24,000 nucleotides of DNA from Streptomyces finlayi (lineage in GTDB: Bacteria > Actinomycetota > Actinomycetes > Streptomycetales > Streptomycetaceae), in contig NZ_CP045702.1 in assembly GCF_014216315.1 (NCBI RefSeq), forward strand, positions 7,614 to 31,613, written 5' to 3'. Below the pieces are notes generated by a model. The model saw only the letters and a list, made by a program, of their open reading frames with translations. It was not told the DNA's origin and did no database searches. Made by a program: the position numbers and the translations under genes. This document shows, piece by piece, positions 3,720 to 16,119 of the stretch. Each line of letters begins with the position of its first letter. Positions within the stretch are counted from its first letter, which is position 1.

Positions 3720-6275
3720 CTACTTGACGATCTGGAGATCGTCGAAGGCGAGGTCTCGCTCGTCCTCGCGGTTGCAGCGGATGAGGACGGCCACGATCTC
3801 GTCCAGCCGCAGCCGCTCCTCCCTGCCGAAGCATCCTGCATGGAAGCGCAGCGTCGTCGGCATCGACTTGATCAGACCCGGGTTGCGCGGATACGGACGC
3901 GGAAGTCCGCCCACCACGTCGGAGTCCAACCAGGCCCGGTTGCCGTTCGTGTCCTCGACGCCCAATTCGAACCCGGTGGCACCCGGGGGAACTTGCGATC
4001 CGTCCGTCACCTCGGCGGCACGGATCCACAGCTCGGTGCCCACCAGATCGGTGGGCTCGGTGAGTTCGGACCGGAAGGTCCGGCCACCGGCGCCCGCCAG
4101 AGCCACCATGCCGGTTGTCTCACCGTAGAAGGAGTCGTTGAAGGCCCCGGGGACCTGCTGGAAGGGGAACTCGTCCGCGCTCAGACCGGACAACTGCGCG
4201 GTCGGCCGTCCCAGGGAGTTCTTCTCGATGGTGTTCCCGTCCTGATGGTTGTCGACCGTCAGCACGTCCTGTCGCGCGAAGGCCAGGTGGACGTAGTGGG
4301 TGAGTACTCCTGCGGGCAGCACCGAACCGTCGAGATACGCGGTGGCACTGCCGTGCCCCAGCAGGGTGGACCGGTACAGGGCACAGCCGTACGCCGCCAG
4401 GATGCGCTCGTGGTCCGCCCGGTCGATCACCGCGGGCTGAGGCGGCGTCCACAGACTGTCGTCATCGAGCCACTGCCGGTTGAAGAAGTTGTGGTTGGTG
4501 AAGTCGACGTACTGCTGGGACTTGAACGGCCCGGGCGCGGCCAGGTCGTAGAACTGCGCGCCGTTGTTGGACGATACGTCGCCGTCGCCCGCCGGCAGCA
4601 GAGTCATGAACGCGTGGCTGGGAGCGGGCTGGACGCTCGGCAGACCGTCGTAGTTCGCCCAGTTGGTGGGGGCCAGCGAGAGGGCCGACCTGATGGTGAC
4701 GCCGGGGAGGGAGACGAGGCTGGGGACGATCACCACCGCCTCCCCGGCCCGGGAGTGGCCCATCAATCCCACCCGGCCGAAGTCGATGCTGTGGTGGAAC
4801 ATTGAACCCGGATCGGCGTCGACCGCCTGAAAGTGCTTGATGTTCTCGATGATCAGGTCCGCCCGGTCCTCGATATTGGCGAACCCGCTGGCACCGTTGT
4901 TCAGGGCGTTGCAGTCGATGGACACGGCGATGACGCCCATCTTCGCGAGGTCGTGCTGGAAGTAGTCGTAACCGAGGTAGCTCGGGTCAGAGGCCGAGTG
5001 CATGCCGTGCGCCATGAAGACAATCGGCACCCGCCCCAGCGCCGACAGCCGCTGGTTGAACGGCTGGTTCACGCCGTCGTCCTGAGCCGGATAGTAGACG
5101 CTGCCCTTGTTGCCGCCGACGCCGTATTCGAGCCGGCCCACCGGGAACAGGTCGAGCCAGGACGGGTTTCCCGCGCTCGGCGGGTCCACGCAGGCCACGC
5201 GGATCTCCACGGCGTACAGGCCGTAACAGCCGCCGAGGTCTTGGACCACGTGCAGGGTGTCACCATGGGCCACGGTCTTGGTCAGCGTCACCATCGGTCC
5301 GCCGCCGACGCCCACGAGCGTTCCGTCGAGCCACGCGCGGACGACCGCACCGGGGACGAACGCGGAGAGCGTGATGTGCGCGTCCCCGGCCTGCACCGGG
5401 CCGACCTGAGGCGGCGGCAGACTGGAACATGGCAGCACCGTCCCGATACCCGGCAGGCTGGGCGGGTCCTCCGGGCACATCGCCTGCGTCGCGCTTGGCG
5501 GTTCCGCAGTCGTGAACGGGCCCAGTCCGCCGACGGCCAGCGTCCCGCCCCAACAGCCCCAGGTACCCAGTGGCGTGCCCCCACGGTAGACGGTGACTTT
5601 CGCACCGTTCACGACGCCGTGCACGACCACCTGCTGGGGGTCGCTCCCGTAGACCGAGTCGACGGTCGGCGCGGGCAGCGGTTGCGGCGGGAACAGCGCG
5701 TTGTGCCCGACGGACGGCGGACTCGGGTCCCCGCACAACTCGAACCAGGCGCGTGCCTGCTGCGCGAGGGCGTACGCCGGGCTCACGTCCACACCCTGTA
5801 CCGGCCCGCAGCCATCCTGCCGGCCGACCTCGGTGCCGTTAGCGGTGATCCAGACGTTCCCGCCGGTCAGCAGATTGGTGACACCCGTGCGGACGCCGCA
5901 GGCATGGACCGGAGCGGGATTGATCTGCGGCCGCGGGGGACCCGCGGGGAAGTCCACGGTGTGGTCACGGACCGTCACCGGGGCGGACCAGTCGCTCTGC
6001 GCCGTCGCAGTCGTCTGCCGCGCCCGCACCTCCTGGGTCGCCGCCAGAGCGCCAGGCAGGGGCACGGTGACGCCGAGGGGCCAGGGACAGCCACCGTTGA
6101 CCACCGGTGCGCCGACGCCGTCGACCTCGACCTCGACGTCGGCACCGGGGACGTAGTCGAAGACGACCACGGAGGTGGCGCACTGATAGACCGGCTGGTC
6201 CACGCGGGGCGGGGAGAGGAGACGGGGATCCTCCGCCAGTTGGAGGCCCTTGCGTTCGACGATCTTGGCATCCAT
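3720..6275 (-). CDS. multidomain alpha/beta-hydrolase (4 N-terminal Ig-like repeats + lipase/PAF-acetylhydrolase-like core + C-terminal beta domain)
   Basis: The ORF is open to 6380, but the MDAKIVERKG start at 6275 has GAGG upstream. Four ~80-aa tandem Cys-containing repeats, then VPIVFMAHGMH and the nucleophile elbow GLMGHSRAGEA (GxSxG). No evident signal peptide. Confidence 0.85.
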   Translation of the reverse strand: MDAKIVERKGLQLAEDPRLLSPPRVDQPVYQCATSVVVFDYVPGADVEVEVDGVGAPVVNGGCPWPLGVTVPLPGALAATQEVRARQTTATAQSDWSAPVTVRDHTVDFPAGPPRPQINPAPVHACGVRTGVTNLLTGGNVWITANGTEVGRQDGCGPVQGVDVSPAYALAQQARAWFELCGDPSPPSVGHNALFPPQPLPAPTVDSVYGSDPQQVVVHGVVNGAKVTVYRGGTPLGTWGCWGGTLAVGGLGPFTTAEPPSATQAMCPEDPPSLPGIGTVLPCSSLPPPQVGPVQAGDAHITLSAFVPGAVVRAWLDGTLVGVGGGPMVTLTKTVAHGDTLHVVQDLGGCYGLYAVEIRVACVDPPSAGNPSWLDLFPVGRLEYGVGGNKGSVYYPAQDDGVNQPFNQRLSALGRVPIVFMAHGMHSASDPSYLGYDYFQHDLAKMGVIAVSIDCNALNNGASGFANIEDRADLIIENIKHFQAVDADPGSMFHHSIDFGRVGLMGHSRAGEAVVIVPSLVSLPGVTIRSALSLAPTNWANYDGLPSVQPAPSHAFMTLLPAGDGDVSSNNGAQFYDLAAPGPFKSQQYVDFTNHNFFNRQWLDDDSLWTPPQPAVIDRADHERILAAYGCALYRSTLLGHGSATAYLDGSVLPAGVLTHYVHLAFARQDVLTVDNHQDGNTIEKNSLGRPTAQLSGLSADEFPFQQVPGAFNDSFYGETTGMVALAGAGGRTFRSELTEPTDLVGTELWIRAAEVTDGSQVPPGATGFELGVEDTNGNRAWLDSDVVGGLPRPYPRNPGLIKSMPTTLRFHAGCFGREERLRLDEIVAVLIRCNREDERDLAFDDLQIVK

Positions 6276-6596
6276 GGGCAGTACCTCGACGTACCTCGAC
6301 CAAGCAGTCAACCCCCATCTCACGTTCCCATGAGGAGGTACGACCGGCAACCGGACCGGAACATGCCTGACGCGGACCACGGATACGGGGCCCTGTCAGC
6401 TGAAGACGACCGAGTGGCGCTTCAGGCGTTCCGTGCCGTAGCGGGCGAGGGGTCGGAGGGTGAAGTAAGCCTGAGACAACGTCACCCGTCATGCGATACC
6501 ACCCAGAACAGTGCACCTATCCCGATCTCTCACCCCGCGACAGTGAACCCGCACCGCAGAAAGCAGCAGACGGGGTCAGGGCCCGCTGCTTCTCCA

Positions 6597-6637
6597 AGCC
6601 TCCGGCAGGATTCGAACCCGCGACACCGCGTCAGGAG
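6597..6637 (-). other. 3' half of a tRNA-Arg(CCU)-like gene (att-type scar), not an intact tRNA
   Basis: The minus strand reads ctcctga(anticodon loop, CCU)-cgcgg-tgtc-gcggg-ttcgaat-cctgc-cggaggc-t. T-arm and acceptor 3' strand are intact, but no matching 5' acceptor, D-arm or anticodon-stem strand lies upstream. An imperfect hairpin plus TTTC follows at about 6559-6592. Confidence 0.55.
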
Positions 6638-6689
6638 TCCTCCCTGGCGGAACAGCGACGCGTGGAAAGGCGGTCGCGTGGCGTGGGGG

Positions 6690-6706
6690 CCGGGGAACCA
6701 CCCCGG
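6690..6706 (-). terminator. short GC hairpin just downstream of heliorhodopsin stop
   Basis: ccgggg-aacca-ccccgg, 6-bp stem with 5-nt loop, 11 nt from the stop codon; no U tail. Confidence 0.3.
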
Positions 6707-6717
6707 ACGAAGGAGGT

Positions 6718-7569
6718 TCAGCCGGCCAGCGAGCCGGTGAAGATCTGCCAGGCCAGAAGTGACTTCGCCACGAGGCTGAGAACCAGGTAGGCCTTCTCCC
6801 CGTATGCGTAGTCGGACCACCGGCCGACTCCGCGGTACTGGAGCCACTGGTTGAGACCGAAGCTGAAGAAGAGGGCGGCCTGGACGAGAACGATCCCGTA
6901 CACGAAGCCGGGGATGGCCCCGGTCGCGACGATGTTGTACGTGATCGAGAGCCACGGCGTCACACCGACCAGCGTCCCGAACCAGAACGGGAGCATCGTG
7001 GTCACCACCCGTCCCGGCGGGTTCATCTCCTCCTCGATCCAGCCGAAGAGAATCATCCCGACGTTGGCGCCGATCACGGCGATGACGGCGTTGAGGCTGG
7101 TGATGCCCGAGTAGAAGCCGATGAGGAGCACCATCAGGGTCGCGCTCAGCGCGTACTCCAGCCACCTGAATCGGTTGATGCCGCGTCTGAGGTCGCGTTC
7201 GTAGGTGCCGCGGCACACCGTCGCCGTCAGCAGGTGGTCCAGTGCCGCGAGGGTGAGGAAGACGGCGACGGCCCAGCCGATCGGCACGTCGAACAGTGCT
7301 TCGGGGGCAGGCGCCTTCGTCCCTGGGGGCCCCTCGGGCAGAGAGGAGGTGACGGTGATCGAGAAGCTGCCGGCGAGGAAGAGGATCGCCAGGGCCTGGA
7401 CCAGGTGCAGCAGCGTGAGCCCCACGTTCCACGCACGGAGCCCGGCGAGGCGTTCGGCGGTGACACCGGTGGCCACCGGTGTGCCGTCCTCTCTTCTCAA
7501 AATTCCTCCCGAGGGTCGGCGCCGCAGTACGTCTGCATGGTCGTCCCGTCCGGGTGGGGATGACGGCAA
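6718..7569 (-). CDS. heliorhodopsin (retinal-binding 7-TM protein)
   Basis: End-to-end resemblance to heliorhodopsin 48C12 as I recall it: LLHLVQ, LAALDHLL, RFRWLEYALSATLMVLLI, ILFGWIEE, LPFWFG, IPGFVYGI, QWLQYRGVGRWSDY, EKAYLVLSLVAKSLLAWQIF (Schiff-base Lys). The ORF maximum starts at TTG 7569, but third-position bias suggests a real start at TTG 7500 or GTG 7476. Confidence 0.9.
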   Translation of the reverse strand: MPSSPPGRDDHADVLRRRPSGGILRREDGTPVATGVTAERLAGLRAWNVGLTLLHLVQALAILFLAGSFSITVTSSLPEGPPGTKAPAPEALFDVPIGWAVAVFLTLAALDHLLTATVCRGTYERDLRRGINRFRWLEYALSATLMVLLIGFYSGITSLNAVIAVIGANVGMILFGWIEEEMNPPGRVVTTMLPFWFGTLVGVTPWLSITYNIVATGAIPGFVYGIVLVQAALFFSFGLNQWLQYRGVGRWSDYAYGEKAYLVLSLVAKSLLAWQIFTGSLAG

Positions 7570-7916
7570 TCACGTCGCTGCCCCGCCAAAAGCCACACGA
7601 GTGGCACAACGAACCGCCGCACCCGCCGCCGCACCCGCCGCTCTCCGGGACGGTCCGCGCGCCGAGAGCGAGTTCGCCCCCCATCCCCTGCGGTGCTGAT
7701 GTGGCCCGTTAACTCTTTCGCGGTCCTGCAACGCGACCGCTGGCCTCTGGGCCCGGCATGACTGTTGCCCTCTGCCGAAGGCCCCCCGAAGATGATCATC
7801 GCCACTGTCCACAACCTCCCGGGACAGGACAGCTAGCGCACGGTCCGGTGCCTCGGCACAGTCCCGGAAGGAGGTGCGCTCGCGTCCGGCAAGCGCCAGC
7901 CCGAGCGGCACCACCG

Positions 7917-7979: not shown

Positions 7980-9035
7980 TCAGGCGTCCGCCCAGGTGTG
8001 TCCGGCCCGCTCCAGTCGTCCTCGGCCCGCGGCCAGATGGGTCAGGGCGCGGGGAAGATCACTCAACGGCTCGCAGAGGGCCTGGACCGCCAGGTCCAGG
8101 CCGGCCGGCGGTATACCGCGGTGGGCCAGCACACCGGCGAGGAACAGCAGGAAGTCGGTGAACACGCGCGGGTCGTCGACGAAGACACCCGCGGCGAGGA
8201 AATCCACCAGGAACCCCAGGTCCTCGACAGCGGCCTCGTACCGGTCGTCGGCGCACCGGCCCATCGGCGGGAAGTGCCGGCGCAGGTGGTCGGCCAGGTG
8301 CCGCAGAAGCTCACCGCGACGGCTGACGAGTTGGGTGTACTCCCCGTCAGCCAGGTGGTCCAGTGCGGGCTCCCCGGACAGCGGCGGCGGCCACTGTCCC
8401 ACCAGCAGGTCCGCGGCGTCCACCGCGGTGCGCGCGTAGAGGTCGGCACCCAGCGCACGGGCCCAGATGCCGTCCGGTCCGAAGCCGGCGCCACCGACCA
8501 TGACCGGGACACGCGCCAGTCGGCACGCCTCGATCGTGTGGTACACCCGGGGCAGGCGCACCGCCAGCATGCACGACAGGACGATCAGATCAGAGCCGTT
8601 CTGATGGAGATACGAGATCAGGTGTGCCGTGGGTACCCCGGCACCGAGGAACCGCACCGTGAAGCCGCGCAGTCGCAGCACCTCCGCAACAATGTGGGCG
8701 GGCAGGGTGTGCCATTCGCCGTCCGGACAGGCCACCACGACGCTCCCGAGAGGATGGTCGGGGACCGCTGTCGCGGCGGCGAGTGCGGAGACTGCCCGGT
8801 TGCTGACATGGGTGGCCGCGTGTTCCTGGGCCACACTCCACTCGTTGGTCACCCAGTGCTCGCCAACCGCTGCCTGGGCGGGTGCGATCAGGCCGAGCAG
8901 CACGTCCTCGGCGCTGACGCCGCTGGCGAGAAGTTCCAGGACGAGTGCCACGGCGGCGGTCTCGTCCGCTCGGGCCAGGTGGTCGTCGAAGGCCGTGCGG
9001 ACACTCTCGATGGCGTCGGAGCGCTCGGCGGTCAC
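7980..9035 (-). CDS. cobalamin (B12)-binding domain protein, CarH-type photoreceptor-like module without DNA-binding domain
   Basis: 351-aa GTG-start ORF. Helical bundle with exact Wx9EH (HWVTNEWSVAQEH), then Rossmann B12-binding domain VVVACPDGEWHTLPAHIVAEVLRLRGFTVRFLG...DLIVLSC...PVMVGG, then a ~130-aa extra helical C-terminal domain. GTGA overlap with the upstream PP2C stop. Confidence 0.88.
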   Translation of the reverse strand: MTAERSDAIESVRTAFDDHLARADETAAVALVLELLASGVSAEDVLLGLIAPAQAAVGEHWVTNEWSVAQEHAATHVSNRAVSALAAATAVPDHPLGSVVVACPDGEWHTLPAHIVAEVLRLRGFTVRFLGAGVPTAHLISYLHQNGSDLIVLSCMLAVRLPRVYHTIEACRLARVPVMVGGAGFGPDGIWARALGADLYARTAVDAADLLVGQWPPPLSGEPALDHLADGEYTQLVSRRGELLRHLADHLRRHFPPMGRCADDRYEAAVEDLGFLVDFLAAGVFVDDPRVFTDFLLFLAGVLAHRGIPPAGLDLAVQALCEPLSDLPRALTHLAAGRGRLERAGHTWADA

Positions 9036-9448
9036 TGCGACTGCCCCCCGTCCGTCGGCGCCGCAGGGGCCGCAGCCTGCACGGCCAGAACGGCGAGGTC
9101 GTCATGGTCGCCTCCGGCCAGCCACTGCCCGCTGCGCAGGTCGATACGCTCGGCGACCGCGCCGGCCGGCATGCCGAGGCAGGCGGCCAGGTCGCGCATC
9201 AACCGTCGTTCGCCGTACATCTCCTGCTCCGTCGGCCCGCCGCTCGCCTCGGTCACACCGTCGCTGTACAACAGCAGTAGTTCGCCGGCCGCCAGCCGGA
9301 TCTCCGTCTGGTGGAAGTCCGGGTCGGGCAGGGCGCCGACCAGTGTCCCGCCTATGTGCACTTCCTCCACCGCGCCGTCCTTGCGCAGCACCAGTGGTGG
9401 GAGGTGGCCGCGGCCTCGTCCCGCTCGGCGGCCGCCAGCCACCGCCAC
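9032..9448 (-). pseudogene. PP2C/SpoIIE-family serine phosphatase, C-terminal ~115 aa only (5'-truncated)
   Basis: GHLPPLVLRKDG...AAGELLLLYSDGVTEA...YGERRLMRDL...DHDDLAVLAV matches the last third of the SpoIIE/PP2C domain; the upstream two thirds and any sensor domain are absent, replaced by a transposase HTH stub. Confidence 0.7.
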
Positions 9449-9666
9449 ACCGCACGCTCCCGCACCCCCAGCACGCCCGCCGCCGACCTCACCTGCCCAG
9501 TGGTGAGCTTCCCCTCCCGCCGCAGGGCCAGCAGACGGCGCACCACAGGCCCCCGCAACGCCCGAACCGACACAGCCGGCAAAGCCCCACTCGAATCACC
9601 ACCCGCCCCTTCCGGAGTCGGACCCTGCCATGTCTGATCCACACCCCCGAGCACACCAACACCCAT
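9420..9666 (-). mobile_element. N-terminal helix-turn-helix stub of a transposase/integrase
   Basis: VVRRLLALRREGKLTTGQVRSAAGVLGVRERAVWRWLAAAERD is a typical transposase N-terminal HTH; the reading frame runs straight into the PP2C remnant with no catalytic domain. Confidence 0.5.
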
Positions 9667-9810
9667 CGACCAGCGGATCAGAACTCACGAAACTGAGACA
9701 GCATCACCCCTCACGCGATAACACTCCACGACAGCGATGTCCCATGGATCTCTCACGCCCAGGACAGTGACCCCACACCCCGAAACAACCCATGAGCAGC
9801 AACAACACAC

Positions 9811-9859
9811 CCAGACCCCGCTGTCTCCCACCCCACCGTCCCAAAACCGAGAGATCGCA
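9811..9859. repeat. element-terminus-like repeat, copy A (ends in AAACCGAGAGATCGCA)
   Basis: Shares AxCCCCGCT ... (21-32 nt) ... AAACCGAGAGATCGCA with 12061-12120 in direct orientation; similarity stops exactly after GATCGCA, where the MOSC fragment context begins. Confidence 0.6.
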
Positions 9860-9879
9860 GCCGACCTTCGCCCATCATC

Positions 9880-10140
9880 TCGGGGAGCCGGGGTGGTCCG
9901 GCGGTTCACCCAGCAGGGCGCCACCGGCGCGTATCTGCGGGTGATCGAACCGGGCGCTGTGCGCTCCGGGGACCCTGTCGAGATCGTTCACCGGCCCGAC
10001 ACGAGGTCACCGCCGCCCTGCAGTTCGGGGCCTGACGGCCCAACGCACCCTGTTCCGCGCTGCTGGCTGCCGGGGAGGCGCAGGCGCTGCACCCCGAGGC
10101 GCTGCGCAAGGCGCAGGATTACGCCACGCGGCAGGGCTGA
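9880..10140 (+). pseudogene. MOSC domain protein, C-terminal fragment with frameshifts
   Basis: VVRRFTQQGATGAYLRVIEPGAVRSGDPVEIVHRPD then, in other frames, HEVTAALQFGA and ALLAAGEAQALHPEALRKAQDYATRQG-stop; N-terminal part missing. Confidence 0.55.
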
Positions 10141-10319
10141 GAGCGGGCGGCCGTTCCGTGCAGGGGAAGCGGCGGGTCCGGTCCCGTGACGTGGCGTCAT
10201 CCGTTGCGAGGTCCCGGGGCACTGCGGCGGGAACTGGATCGGTGCGCGGCGCGTCCACCACCAGTGACCGATGCCCGAGGAGAAGTCTTCGAGCCGAGTG
10301 ACGTCTCAGGGGGAAGACC

Positions 10320-12784: not shown

Positions 12785-13486
12785 TCAGTTGGCCTCGCAA
12801 CCGATGCCGTCACCATCGCGGTCGAGGTTGTGCGGGTCGGACGGGCCGACCCAAACGGGACCGGAAAGGTCCTCGCAGTCGACGTCGGGCTCACCCGCGG
12901 GCGGACCGGGCGGGTAGGTGCTCTCGGATTCGTCCGGCGGCGCCGGAGCCTCGACGAGGCGTATGGCGGCGTCAACGATGATCCCGCCCCTGACTGTGTA
13001 AGTACCCTCGTACGACTGCTGGGTCCCATCCGGCCGCAGTACATCGATCGTGACAGTCACGCTCCCTCCCGTGACATCAAGAATGTGAACGGTGTCGCGT
13101 TCAACATCGGCGAACCCCGCTGCGAAGGACGAGTAGGAAGGGTCGCCGAGGTTCTTGCCCCCGAGGTCCCACGCCCGTCGGTAGTCGCGCGCGTTGATGG
13201 CATCGAAGTACGCCTCGACGGTGGAGGCTGCGCCGGTGGGGGCGGGCGGCTCCGGCGTGGTCGGGGCTGGGGGCGGAGGCGGGGTGGGAGTGGCCTTGGG
13301 CGGTGCCGGGGAGGGCGTTGGCTCAGGGGTGAGGGCCTGGGTCTCGGTCCGGGTCTGCGTCCGAGTGACCGTCGGAGTGGCCCCCTGCGGCGTCTCGTCG
13401 CCCTCGGAGCCACAGCCACTGAGCCCTGCCACGGCAACGGCCGCCGCCAGCAGGAAGGCCGAGCCCGAGCAGAGGACGCGGCTCAT
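12785..13486 (-). CDS. lipoprotein with C-terminal Excalibur calcium-binding domain
   Basis: Signal peptide plus lipobox MSRVLCSGSAFLLAAAVAVAGLSGC, Thr/Pro-rich linker, C-terminal DCEDLSGPVWVGPSDPHNLDRDGDGIGCE; GAGG 8 nt upstream of ATG 13486 (ORF open to 13516). Confidence 0.85.
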   Translation of the reverse strand: MSRVLCSGSAFLLAAAVAVAGLSGCGSEGDETPQGATPTVTRTQTRTETQALTPEPTPSPAPPKATPTPPPPPAPTTPEPPAPTGAASTVEAYFDAINARDYRRAWDLGGKNLGDPSYSSFAAGFADVERDTVHILDVTGGSVTVTIDVLRPDGTQQSYEGTYTVRGGIIVDAAIRLVEAPAPPDESESTYPPGPPAGEPDVDCEDLSGPVWVGPSDPHNLDRDGDGIGCEAN

Positions 13487-13526
13487 AGGCATCACCTCAC
13501 GGAGAGGGTCCCGCATTCACTCCAGT

Positions 13527-14224
13527 GTGCGCCGACGGTTTGGGCCGCGCCTGTGGAACCACGCGTCCCGAGGCGGTCGGTGTTTCACCTCGTACCGCGG
13601 CAGAGCCGCATCCGGCCGCTGGAAACGTGAGCGCCGCCTGGCAGCGATGTTCGCCGGCCTGGGACCGCAGGCGGTCGCAGCGGACCGGGCGGATGCGGCT
13701 GATGTCACCGTTGTACTTGATCAGGCCGGCGGCCATGGCGGCGACGCCCTCCGGCTCGCCGCCGAAGGCTGGGACGTCACGGCTGTCGACGTTTCACAAA
13801 CCGCCCTCGGCCGCGTGAGCGCGGGCGCCGCGGCCACCGGCGTCACCAACCGGGTCCACACCTGGCGACACGACCTGGCCGCGACCTTCCCCGACGGCGC
13901 CTACGACCTGGTCACCGCCACCTACTTCCACACCCTGATCGCCATCTCCCGCGCACACGTACTGCGCCGGGCCGCCCAGGCCGTAGCTCCCGGCGGGCTG
14001 CTGATCGTGATCGAACACGCCTCCCTGGGCCCCTGGTCCTGGCGGACCGGCCAGGACATCCAGTTCCCCACCCTCGACGAGGTCATCGCCTCGCTGCAGC
14101 TGAAAGACGCTGGCACGTCGAACGAGGCCACGCTCCCCAGCGCACCGCCACCGGCCCTCAGGGGCAGACGGCGACCGTCCCCGGACCCCGCGCCACCGGA
14201 CGTGCAAGGTTTAGCCGACCGTGA
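13527..14224 (+). pseudogene. class I SAM-dependent methyltransferase, frameshifted and motif-degraded
   Basis: LRLAAEGWDVTAVDVSQTAL...HDLAATFPDGAYDLVTATYFH...VAPGGLLIVIEHAS. The frame breaks at about 14109-14111: LQLKDA, then in the +2 frame WHVERGHAPQRTATGPQGQTATV to the stop at 14224. The glycine-rich SAM loop reads VLDQAGGHGGDA instead of the usual LDxGCGxG. Confidence 0.6.
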
Positions 14225-14291
14225 GGGAGCGCGAACCCCATCGTTTCGGGCGTCCTGGGCCGCAGCAGGGCCCGAAGCGGGGCTTCTTGGG

Positions 14292-15191
14292 TCAGGAGTG
14301 ACGGGATTCGGCGCCCTTGCGGGGCAGGGCTGCCTCGCTCGGCCCGCCGACGTGGGCGAGGAGAGCCAGGGCCGTCGCGGACGGGGACCCCTGGGCGGCC
14401 GTGGCGATCACCACGGCCGGTCCGCTTCCTCGCGGACTCTGGAGTGTCTGCTGGGTGACGGTCAGGTTCCCGACCGCGGGGTGGTGTATCTCGTAGTCGG
14501 CGGCATCGCAGGCCAGGATCCGGTGATCGGCCCACATGGTGGCAAACTCCGGGCTGCGGATGATCAGCTCGCCGACGAGCCCGGCCAGCAGAGGATCCTC
14601 CGGGTACCGGCCGGCGGTGAGGCGCAGGTTGCCGACCACGGCCTTGGCCTTGGCGGGCCAATCGGTATAGAGGTCGCGGGTGTGAGCGTCGAGGAACACC
14701 AGTTTGGCCATGTTCGGCCGACAGCCCGGTTCAGCGGGGCTGCCCCGGTCGAGATGGCCGGCAAACAACGCGTGACCCTGCGTGTTCCAGGCCAGAACGT
14801 CACTGCGGCGGCCCATGACGATGGCGGGGGTGCCTTCGAGTGCGGCGAGCAGCGCGCCGTGAGCCGGGGTGACGCGCTCGGGACGGGGCCGGGGTGCGGC
14901 TTTGCCCCGCTTCGGTGCACGGGCGAGTTCGTACAGATGGGCCCGCTCGGACTCATCCAGGCATAGGGCGGTCGCGATGGCATCGAGTACCTCGCGCGAG
15001 GCGTTGCGTGACTGGCCCTGCTCGAGCCGGGTGTAGTACGGCGCGCTGATGCCCGCGAGCATCGCCAGCTCCTCCCTCCGCAGCCCCGGCACCCGGCGCC
15101 GCTCGCCGTAGGTCTGCAGCCCCACATCCTCGGGACGCAGAAGGCCCCGGCGTGCCTTGAGGAATGCGGCGAGCTGCCCGTGCTTGTCCAT
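14292..15191 (-). CDS. XRE-family HTH regulator with MmyB-like C-terminal domain
   Basis: MDKHGQLAAFLKARRGLLRPEDVGLQTYGERRRVPGLRREELAMLAGISAPYYTRLEQGQSRN is the canonical MmyB-like N-terminus; the 547-aa track ORF extension upstream is antisense to the SRPBCC gene and not credible. Confidence 0.88.
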   Translation of the reverse strand: MDKHGQLAAFLKARRGLLRPEDVGLQTYGERRRVPGLRREELAMLAGISAPYYTRLEQGQSRNASREVLDAIATALCLDESERAHLYELARAPKRGKAAPRPRPERVTPAHGALLAALEGTPAIVMGRRSDVLAWNTQGHALFAGHLDRGSPAEPGCRPNMAKLVFLDAHTRDLYTDWPAKAKAVVGNLRLTAGRYPEDPLLAGLVGELIIRSPEFATMWADHRILACDAADYEIHHPAVGNLTVTQQTLQSPRGSGPAVVIATAAQGSPSATALALLAHVGGPSEAALPRKGAESRHS

Positions 15192-15332
15192 GAACCGAGT
15201 ATGCGCGGCAGATCCTGAGCCGCGCCTCACCCTGCTGGGGTACGGATCCGCAGGGTCTGGCTGCTCCCCGCACCGGCCCTCATGATGAGGCCCACACCCC
15301 CCTTCTGTCGTCTTCATCTGTTGGGATGCCCT

Positions 15333-15863
15333 GTGAGCACTACGACGTTCGAGAGCACCGCCCCCAACCGGCGAGATCCGCTGGCCGGCCTCGATCTGAC
15401 ACCCTTCACCTTCACCAGGCGGTGCTGGGTCGACTCGACGCCGGACTCCGTGTATCAGCTGATCAGCGACGTGTCCCTGATCGAGACGTGGAGCCCTAGC
15501 GCCAGCGCCGTGAGCTATGAGCCGGGAGACGGCCCATGGGTCGGCGCACGGTTCAGCGGACGCAACCGCCGTGACGGGCGCGAATGGGTCACCCACTCCG
15601 AGGTGGTCCAGGCTGATCCAGGTTCCGCGTTCGCCTTCGTCGTCGGCGGAGCCGAGCAAGGCATCGTTCGCTGGAACTGGCACCTCTACGAGCAGGGCGT
15701 TGGCAGCATCGTCCAGCAGTCCTGGCGCCTGTTGCGCACCGACCCGCTCCTGGGCAACGCACCCGCGGACCTCCATGCTTTGCGGGACCACATGGCAAGC
15801 AGTGCGGAGGCCACCCTGCTGTCCCTGGCGGAGTGGATCGCGCGACACCGCACTCAGCGGTAG
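15333..15863 (+). CDS. SRPBCC (START/polyketide cyclase-like) family protein
   Basis: Divergent from the MmyB-like regulator; [24 protein letters not shown]...[20 protein letters not shown] pattern typical of SRPBCC; GTG 15333 (VSTTTFEST) has GGGA upstream, ORF maximum begins at 15282. Confidence 0.8.
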
Positions 15864-16119
15864 CCGCCCCGGTCCAGGTGGCGCGAGACTGTGAGGACGA
15901 TACGGGTTCACCGCGCGACCCAGCGGCCGCCGCACTCACCGGCGAAGGCTCCCTCCCTGCCCGCAGGGTCCAGATCCATTGCCGGTGAACTGGGACCCAG
16001 TCATCTGCCGCTCGGCCCGTCCAGACGACCACCCGCAAGACCTGATTCGGGGCCGGCGCTGATGAATGGACGACACCGTAGTCATCCCCGTGCACGCCCG
16101 GCTGGGAATACGGATCCCT

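Follow-up and report, generated by a model that had tools for sequence, protein, structure and literature searches.

The window analysed here is a 24,000-nucleotide stretch of Streptomyces finlayi DNA (contig NZ_CP045702.1) with a G+C content of approximately 69%, and the gene in question is a heliorhodopsin (HeR) gene on its minus strand. The HeR gene is preceded by a leader, followed by a remnant of a tRNA-derived attachment (att) site, and located downstream of a gene for a photocobilin, a B12- and biliverdin-dependent photoreceptor. The longest open reading frame (ORF) spanning HeR extends over 6718–7569, is initiated by TTG, and encodes 283 aa. As judged from its sequence, this ORF is a genuine, intact, and full-length heliorhodopsin gene. 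The Pfam family PF18761 (Heliorhodopsin) matched the ORF over the complete model (positions 1–242 of 242) with an E value of 4.4e-94 and 314.8 bits, and the NCBIfam equivalog NF038020, "heliorhodopsin HeR", matched with 258.3 bits over positions 1–244 of 244; the curated cut-offs of the two models are 26.7 and 100 bits, respectively. Matches to solved structures were obtained with 48C12 (6su3, 6uh3, and 9ljj; E of approximately 2e-63), TaHeR (6is6; 2e-45), and a eukaryotic HeR (8e-37).

The signature residues were located with a HMMER alignment to 48C12 and are given below in the numbering of both the 283-aa form and the 260-aa form, which begins at the preferred start codon. The helix 1 histidine of 48C12, H23, corresponded to H55 (H32 in the 260-aa form), and the helix 2 histidine, H80, corresponded to H112 (H89). 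E107, the single counterion in helix 3, was found as E138 (E115) within RWLEYALS, S237 as S265 (S242), and K241, the Schiff-base lysine of helix 7, as K269 (K246) within LSLVAKSLLAWQIF. Q213 and E149 of 48C12 were likewise kept. In the 260-aa form, the motifs LLHLVQ, LDHLL, RWLEYALSATLM, and LSLVAKSLLAWQIF lie at residues 30, 87, 112, and 241, respectively. The original prediction, which was made from the sequence alone, had named the ORF a heliorhodopsin with both histidines, the counterion Glu, and the Schiff-base Lys in place, and PF18761, NF038020, and the alignments to 48C12 and TaHeR agree with it; the Pfam search and the two alignments, which had been proposed as a check, gave a strong match with Lys and Glu at the key positions. 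The N-terminal tail contains four K/R and three D/E residues, and its charge is uninformative on topology. HeRs are reported to be restricted to monoderms (PMC8612252), and S. finlayi is a monoderm, as membership in the family leads one to expect. The coordinates of the features are summarized in Table 1.

Table 1. Features of the heliorhodopsin locus and its surroundings (positions in the window, except in the last row, where they belong to the loci named).
Feature	Position	Strand	Remarks
Heliorhodopsin (HeR) coding sequence	6718..7500	-	260 aa + stop, preferred start TTG 7500; H32, H89, E115, S242, K246
Alternative in-frame start GTG, used by RefSeq	7474..7476	-	gives the 252-aa WP_185296824.1
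Shine-Dalgarno sequence GGGAGG	7505..7510	-	4 nt upstream of TTG 7500
5' part of the longest ORF beyond TTG 7500, in frame, predicted noncoding	7501..7569	-	G+C content at third codon positions (GC3) 0.57; inside the noncoding leader alignment
HeR leader, ~130 nt	7501..7635	-	common to ~23 Streptomyces and Kitasatospora HeR loci (alignments)
Degenerate tRNA-Arg(CCU)-type gene, 3' part only; att core	6598..6637	-	start lies 80 nt beyond the HeR stop
Standalone photocobilin (B12 + biliverdin photoreceptor), outside the HeR unit	7980..9035	-	B12-binding_2 (PF02607) + B12-binding (PF02310)
5'-truncated SpoIIE/PP2C phosphatase gene remnant	9032..9448	-	last 138 codons; Pfam SpoIIE model 81-190 only
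CarH/LitR-like regulator with excisionase-type helix-turn-helix (HTH)	L054 10790-11566; L056 10841-11773		beside HeR in Acidimicrobiales metagenome-assembled genomes (MAGs)

The start codon of HeR was evaluated from homologue length, coding statistics, and an alignment of upstream regions. Nearly all among the best 120 homologues are 260 aa long, which corresponds to translation from TTG 7500. At this position, the codon was ATG or GTG in all 23 Streptomyces and Kitasatospora relatives, and each of the 24 sequences in the alignment has a GGGAGGA-type Shine-Dalgarno sequence in front of this codon, four of them in slightly altered form. Accordingly, TTG 7500 is the probable start. As the GC3 of the extension from 7569 to 7501 was 0.57 compared with 0.91 in the gene body, TTG 7569 should not be the start, and its use is very unlikely. 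In the case of GTG 7476, the stretch of eight codons that separates it from 7500 also showed a low GC3 (0.62), so this codon keeps a claim, if a rather doubtful one; the AGAGGA upstream of it resembles a Shine-Dalgarno sequence in the S. finlayi HeR clade only and is not kept in relatives. The choice of start leaves the rhodopsin core intact because the Pfam domain begins at residue 21 of the 260-aa form. The doubt that had been raised about 7569, with TTG 7500 or GTG 7476 put forward in its place, was thus upheld by GC3, homologue length, and the start and Shine-Dalgarno alignment.

The leader upstream of HeR contains a near-invariant CGACCATGC and, in many of the loci, an inverted repeat, GGTACG-N10-CGTACC, while a 12-nt tandem duplication at 7614–7637 is specific to the S. 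finlayi HeR clade. Its conservation was 67–79%, compared with 81–89% at third codon positions. Presumably, the leader comprises the promoter/operator and 5' untranslated region of HeR itself, travelling with the gene, and is not a special regulatory RNA. A structured RNA or riboswitch was rejected, as RNAalifold predicted 20 pairs with 0 compensatory changes and a covariation term of -0.38, and no Rfam match was obtained. A light-inducible sigma-LitS promoter was also rejected; its consensus, GCATCCR-N15-CVGAAD, was taken from PMC11519972 and had no match within 7500–7760, and elsewhere 14 loose matches were found against 8.6 expected by chance. Moreover, a 13-codon upstream ORF, running from ATG 7537 to a TGA overlapping TTG 7500, was discarded since, by inspection, its frame is lost in relatives of the L008 type.

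Constraint on the gene was determined from comparisons with ten relatives of equal length. The ratio of nonsynonymous to synonymous substitution rates (dN/dS) was 0.19–0.39, which indicates purifying selection on HeR, and the gene is probably functional, as far as its sequence can tell. The RefSeq protein WP_185296824.1, "heliorhodopsin HeR [Streptomyces finlayi]", is identical to the translation over 252 aa and starts at GTG 7476; this exact match also identifies the host, which had been described as Streptomyces-like. WP_185296824.1 has two GenBank accessions, QNE73251.1 and QNE78973.1, and S. finlayi thus carries two identical heR copies. A third heR (WP_185297898.1/QNE74340.1/F0344_06720) encodes a protein identical at 251 of 252 residues, with a single V-to-A change. 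The locus tag F0344_34265 belongs to one copy of the identical pair. Judging from the order of the accessions, these two copies may lie close to the two ends of the chromosome, perhaps within terminal inverted repeats.

Streptomyces HeRs are annotated by NCBI in many species at 85–90% identity, the range across Streptomycetaceae being 85–98%, and the public collection also holds an entry named "MULTISPECIES: heliorhodopsin HeR [Streptomycetaceae]". Furthermore, Streptomyces sp. CC77 has a HeR that was produced in E. coli and purified; it binds retinal and has its absorption maximum at 553 nm (PMC7807009). Since RefSeq names the protein, Streptomyces HeRs are numerous, and the CC77 HeR has been characterised, both the gene and its family membership were already known, and the S. 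finlayi HeR is unremarkable within a family that has many members.

The genomic context of HeR was examined in 80 genome loci encoding HeR relatives and in two more from assemblies. When all neighbours in the window were compared by tblastn with the 80 genome loci, none recurred beside HeR, and clustering of 815 HeR-neighbour ORFs yielded no universal partner gene. The recurring neighbour classes were a TerC-type membrane protein, located upstream (13 of 81 places), GGDEF/EAL or MHYT proteins (11), and P-type ATPases (8). TerC, SDR, and MerR-family proteins are among ten published groups of HeR neighbours (PMC11109279), and the promiscuous genomic context of HeR has also been published (PMC8612252).

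At the nucleotide level, similarity to Streptomyces HeR loci ends at the stop codon and reaches only 100–160 nt upstream. A closer comparison was possible with four HeR genes of 95–96% nucleotide identity, namely, those of the window, Kitasatospora cinereorecta (L001), L081, and L082, which have only approximately 1.05–1.2 kb in common. Their upstream genes differ (photocobilin, ROK regulator, and helicase), and three downstream breakpoints were located at window positions 6655, 6613, and 6582. The block of leader, HeR, and att remnant in the S. finlayi clade corresponds to 6582–7708 of the window. A 55-nt piece (window 7702–7756) lies upstream of the block here and downstream of it in K. cinereorecta. 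The repeats flanking the 1.1-kb block were only short and imperfect, as chance would give. With respect to a vehicle for HeR, no phage match was found, and plasmids gave two distant matches at 37–39% identity.

The original prediction had described a tRNA scar 80 bp from HeR, and this feature turned out to be a degenerate tRNA-Arg att core of the type found in phages VWB and RP3. The segment 6598–6637 aligned with the annotated "attP attachment site" or "core of attP" of these phages at 87.8% identity over 41 nt (36/41; E of 3e-4) and with tRNA-Arg genes of mycobacteriophages at 82.5%. The alignment with the att core starts in the anticodon loop, which reads CTCCTAA in the phages (anticodon CCT), and continues as far as the acceptor end; exactly this part of a tRNA is duplicated by such integrases. 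Moreover, GGTTCGAATCC occurs once, compared with 0.02 occurrences expected by chance. The tRNA-like part is limited to the 3' 40 nt, and a tRNA gene at 6590–6672 was rejected, since ARAGORN predicted 0, Rfam gave no match even at E <= 10, and the minimum free energy fold formed no cloverleaf (z = +0.3). Among the closely related loci, the remnant is present in full in K. cinereorecta, to within the T-loop in L082, and with its upstream edge only in L081; the homology breaks of the HeR block fall within the remnant or just after it. The remnant therefore fits a recombination-prone junction, as read from these alignments.

As the HeR block sits in different contexts in close relatives and S. finlayi has three heR copies, the present neighbourhood, photocobilin gene included, would have come about by chance rearrangement and would not be an operon. 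The neighbours change even between copies that are 95–98% identical, and the locus thus cannot be used for assigning a function to HeR by association. The expectation that genomic context would be valuable for understanding HeR function was therefore disappointed here, as the same neighbours were found neither around HeR elsewhere nor at the photocobilin loci closest to this one.

In the case of the upstream neighbour, a B12 photoreceptor-like gene had been placed approximately 410 bp from HeR. The gene is a photocobilin gene on the same strand, 410 nt from 7569 and 479 nt from TTG 7500. Its product matched SasPcob (PDB 8J2W/8J2X) with an E value of 9e-84 over residues 19–341, including the C-terminal globin-like domain. 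The B12 part is a CarH-type module, in which a B12-binding_2 four-helix bundle is combined with a B12-binding Rossmann domain; its W61-x9-E71-H72 motif and the lower-ligand histidine in GEWH107TLP were aligned identically in SasPcob. The product is also 100% identical to an S. finlayi protein named only "cobalamin-binding protein" in RefSeq. Photocobilins bind adenosylcobalamin and biliverdin and are reported to be linked to STAS, SpoIIE, and PP2C proteins (PMC10979010). A CarH/LitR transcription factor was rejected for 7980–9035, since the NCBIfam CarH model matched at positions 81–262 only, with 66 bits against a cut-off of 400, and no Pfam HTH domain was detected.

The closest photocobilin loci belong to three Streptomyces genomes (92% identity) and to one assembly contig (89%). 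In these orthologous loci, a GAF-SpoIIE gene of 514–522 aa precedes photocobilin with a 4-nt overlap, and no HeR is located nearby. In the window, the corresponding PP2C gene is a remnant that abuts an ORF at 9352–9666, which by eye resembles a transposase/integrase HTH; this ORF had no Pfam or NCBIfam match. A fragment with a MOSC domain was observed at 9737–10189 on the strand opposite to the remnant. Together, the PP2C remnant, the probable HTH fragment, and the MOSC fragment at 9032–10200 form a decayed region.

The only other B12-type genes found beside HeR were those of two related Acidimicrobiales MAGs, in which a regulator composed of HTH_17, B12-binding_2, and B12-binding domains with W-x9-EH follows HeR at approximately 55 nt (Table 1). 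This regulator is a different type of protein from the photocobilin and falls under the published "MerR family" class of neighbours. No link between heliorhodopsin and photocobilin or CarH was found in the library of literature searched. Because the adjacency of HeR and photocobilin is not conserved from either side, it says little on function; it is lineage-specific and most likely accidental.

Other features of the window were recorded as well. Downstream of HeR, an 886-aa ORF (3720–6380, minus strand) showed good coding statistics (GC3 of 0.87) and no sequence match in Pfam, NCBIfam, or PDB; a nucleophile-elbow-like GHSRAG motif suggests an alpha/beta-hydrolase part. An MmyB-like regulator (HTH_31 and MLTR_LBD; 14292–15935, minus strand) stands beside a Polyketide_cyc2/SRPBCC ORF (15282–15863, plus strand) and a class-I methyltransferase ORF (13194–14966, plus strand), with ORF calls that overlap one another and gene boundaries that are provisional. 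Candidate ORFs of 260–340 aa between 15891 and 17789 had no family match. An ORF with a domain like the ADP-ribosyltransferase toxin Scabin (17874–19109, minus strand) adjoins or overlaps a DDE_Tnp_4 transposase ORF (18961–19563, plus strand), and an SseB-like ORF (17004–17867, minus strand) lies upstream of this pair.

Taking these results together, we consider it very likely that the gene encodes a canonical and probably functional heliorhodopsin-family protein of S. finlayi, that is, a retinal-based light sensor with a slow photocycle that modulates partner proteins, encoded in a rearranged neighbourhood. The mechanism was drawn from the literature on 48C12, TaHeR, AbHeR, TfHeR, and OcHeR. 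From the collinear alignment to solved HeR structures, the protein would be a seven-helix membrane protein of inverted topology with a cytoplasmic N-terminus. All-trans retinal would be bound to K246 as a protonated Schiff base, with E115 as the counterion. Green light of approximately 550 nm would isomerise the retinal and start a slow photocycle without net ion transport, and the long-lived conformational change could then be read out by a partner protein. Published HeR partners are glutamine synthetase, photolyase, and ABC transporters (PMC9529153, PMC9769723, and PMC11109279); the S. finlayi partner would not be the product of a conserved neighbouring gene.

Several observations weigh against this interpretation. 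The case for retinal binding, topology, and photocycle is built on a 45% identity to 48C12. A Pfam scan of approximately 40 ORFs of the 24-kb window detected no carotenoid or retinal-synthesis family, in agreement with the earlier statement that the window contains no crt, blh, or carotenoid oxygenase gene. The HeR start is a non-ATG codon, and decayed genes, namely, the truncated PP2C gene and other gene fragments, surround HeR. In addition, no sigma-70 consensus promoter was found around HeR, no promoter was identified in the leader, and no intrinsic terminators were found around HeR, as the hairpins at 7800–7885 (z of -1.8) and 6545–6605 (z of -0.4) were no better than those of shuffled sequences. 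Because no terminator hairpin was significant, independent transcription of HeR is a point that we infer.

Part of these observations would be accounted for if HeR were an orphan opsin without a light function, being either an intact protein without a chromophore supply or a recently duplicated relic heading to decay. The missing crt, blh, and carotenoid-oxygenase genes of the window, the TTG start where the closest relatives have ATG, and the decayed surroundings, including the DDE transposase, are in line with this explanation. Moreover, heR is one of three near-identical copies, and selection on any single copy may thus be relaxed. However, the dN/dS of 0.19–0.39 and the intact signature residues are those of a maintained gene, and the Shine-Dalgarno sequence and leader are conserved. 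As for the chromophore, retinal genes are usually unlinked to HeR, and crt clusters are common in Streptomyces. According to a 2025 preprint, HeRs can make use of exogenous carotenoids, which would be bound as antennae. Thus, the orphan explanation is considered unlikely.

A second explanation would make HeR and photocobilin a joint module of two photoreceptors, for example, one feeding a PP2C-type partner-switching pathway. The two genes lie on the same strand only 479 nt apart, the Acidimicrobiales MAGs (L054 and L056) also carry a B12-binding regulator after HeR, and, among 83 places examined, the B12-photoreceptor-type genes detected within 10 kb of HeR were always immediately adjacent to it. 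Nevertheless, none of the other 80 HeR loci shows the arrangement, not even those whose HeRs are 95–98% identical, and the four closest photocobilin loci (89–92% identity) keep the PP2C-photocobilin pair without HeR. The PP2C partner is truncated in the window, HeR has its own leader travelling with the gene, and the Acidimicrobiales neighbour is a MerR/HTH regulator of a class that has already been published (PMC11109279). The lack of conservation largely refutes the joint module, which is therefore highly improbable. There is a similarly slim chance of a functional locus of two photoreceptors (retinal plus B12/biliverdin) in S. finlayi, which would have arisen by insertion of a small mobile HeR block next to a photocobilin gene already deprived of its normal PP2C output, with HeR or its partner then joining the signalling output of the photocobilin. 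Finally, light-driven transport of protons or other ions, as reported for protons in viral HeRs such as V2HeR3, is extremely improbable, since the S. finlayi HeR groups with the bacterial 48C12 type (45% identity with the same counterion and histidine pair), the cited papers assign a regulatory or sensory role to HeRs of bacteria and archaea, and binding to partner proteins is the mode of action of the closest actinobacterial HeRs that have been characterised. To our knowledge, 48C12 and TaHeR show no ion transport.

The sensory heliorhodopsin thus being preferred, the analysis has practical consequences for annotation and for later work. The start-codon correction to TTG 7500 gives a protein of 260 aa, compared with 252 aa in RefSeq and 283 aa in the longest ORF. 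Moreover, S. finlayi is a cultivable organism of a genetically tractable type, and with three near-identical heR genes and a photocobilin, it could serve work on light responses.

The S. finlayi HeR and its locus can be compared with several known systems. The prototype 48C12, from an actinobacterial fosmid (PDB 6SU3, 6UH3, and 9LJJ), shares 45% identity over 242 aligned residues that cover all seven helices. Compared with 48C12, the S. finlayi HeR has a 5-residue deletion, which shortens the loop before transmembrane helix 6, and the pocket residue changes S76A, S112A, C166T, and L202Q. The CC77 HeR has genus and family in common with it, and the likeness is one of family and not of a sequence-to-sequence comparison. 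Other Streptomycetaceae HeRs, such as that of K. cinereorecta, show 85–98% protein identity and have the 260-aa length, the leader, and the Shine-Dalgarno sequence in common, whereas the flanking genes are different in every case. The RefSeq entry for the S. finlayi protein itself is eight codons shorter than the TTG 7500 form favoured by the comparison.

For the neighbouring features, SasPcob has the B12 domains, the globin-like domain, and W-x9-EH in common with the S. finlayi photocobilin, the match in the biliverdin-binding region being at the level of the domain. Unlike SasPcob-type loci, the S. finlayi locus has a truncated PP2C partner gene and a HeR gene downstream. Relative to the attP core of VWB and RP3, the S. 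finlayi remnant has five differences, including a 1-nt deletion. Its orientation relative to the upstream gene matches that of int-attP in VWB; however, in contrast to both phages, no integrase gene is located nearby, and HeR fills the position next to the core.

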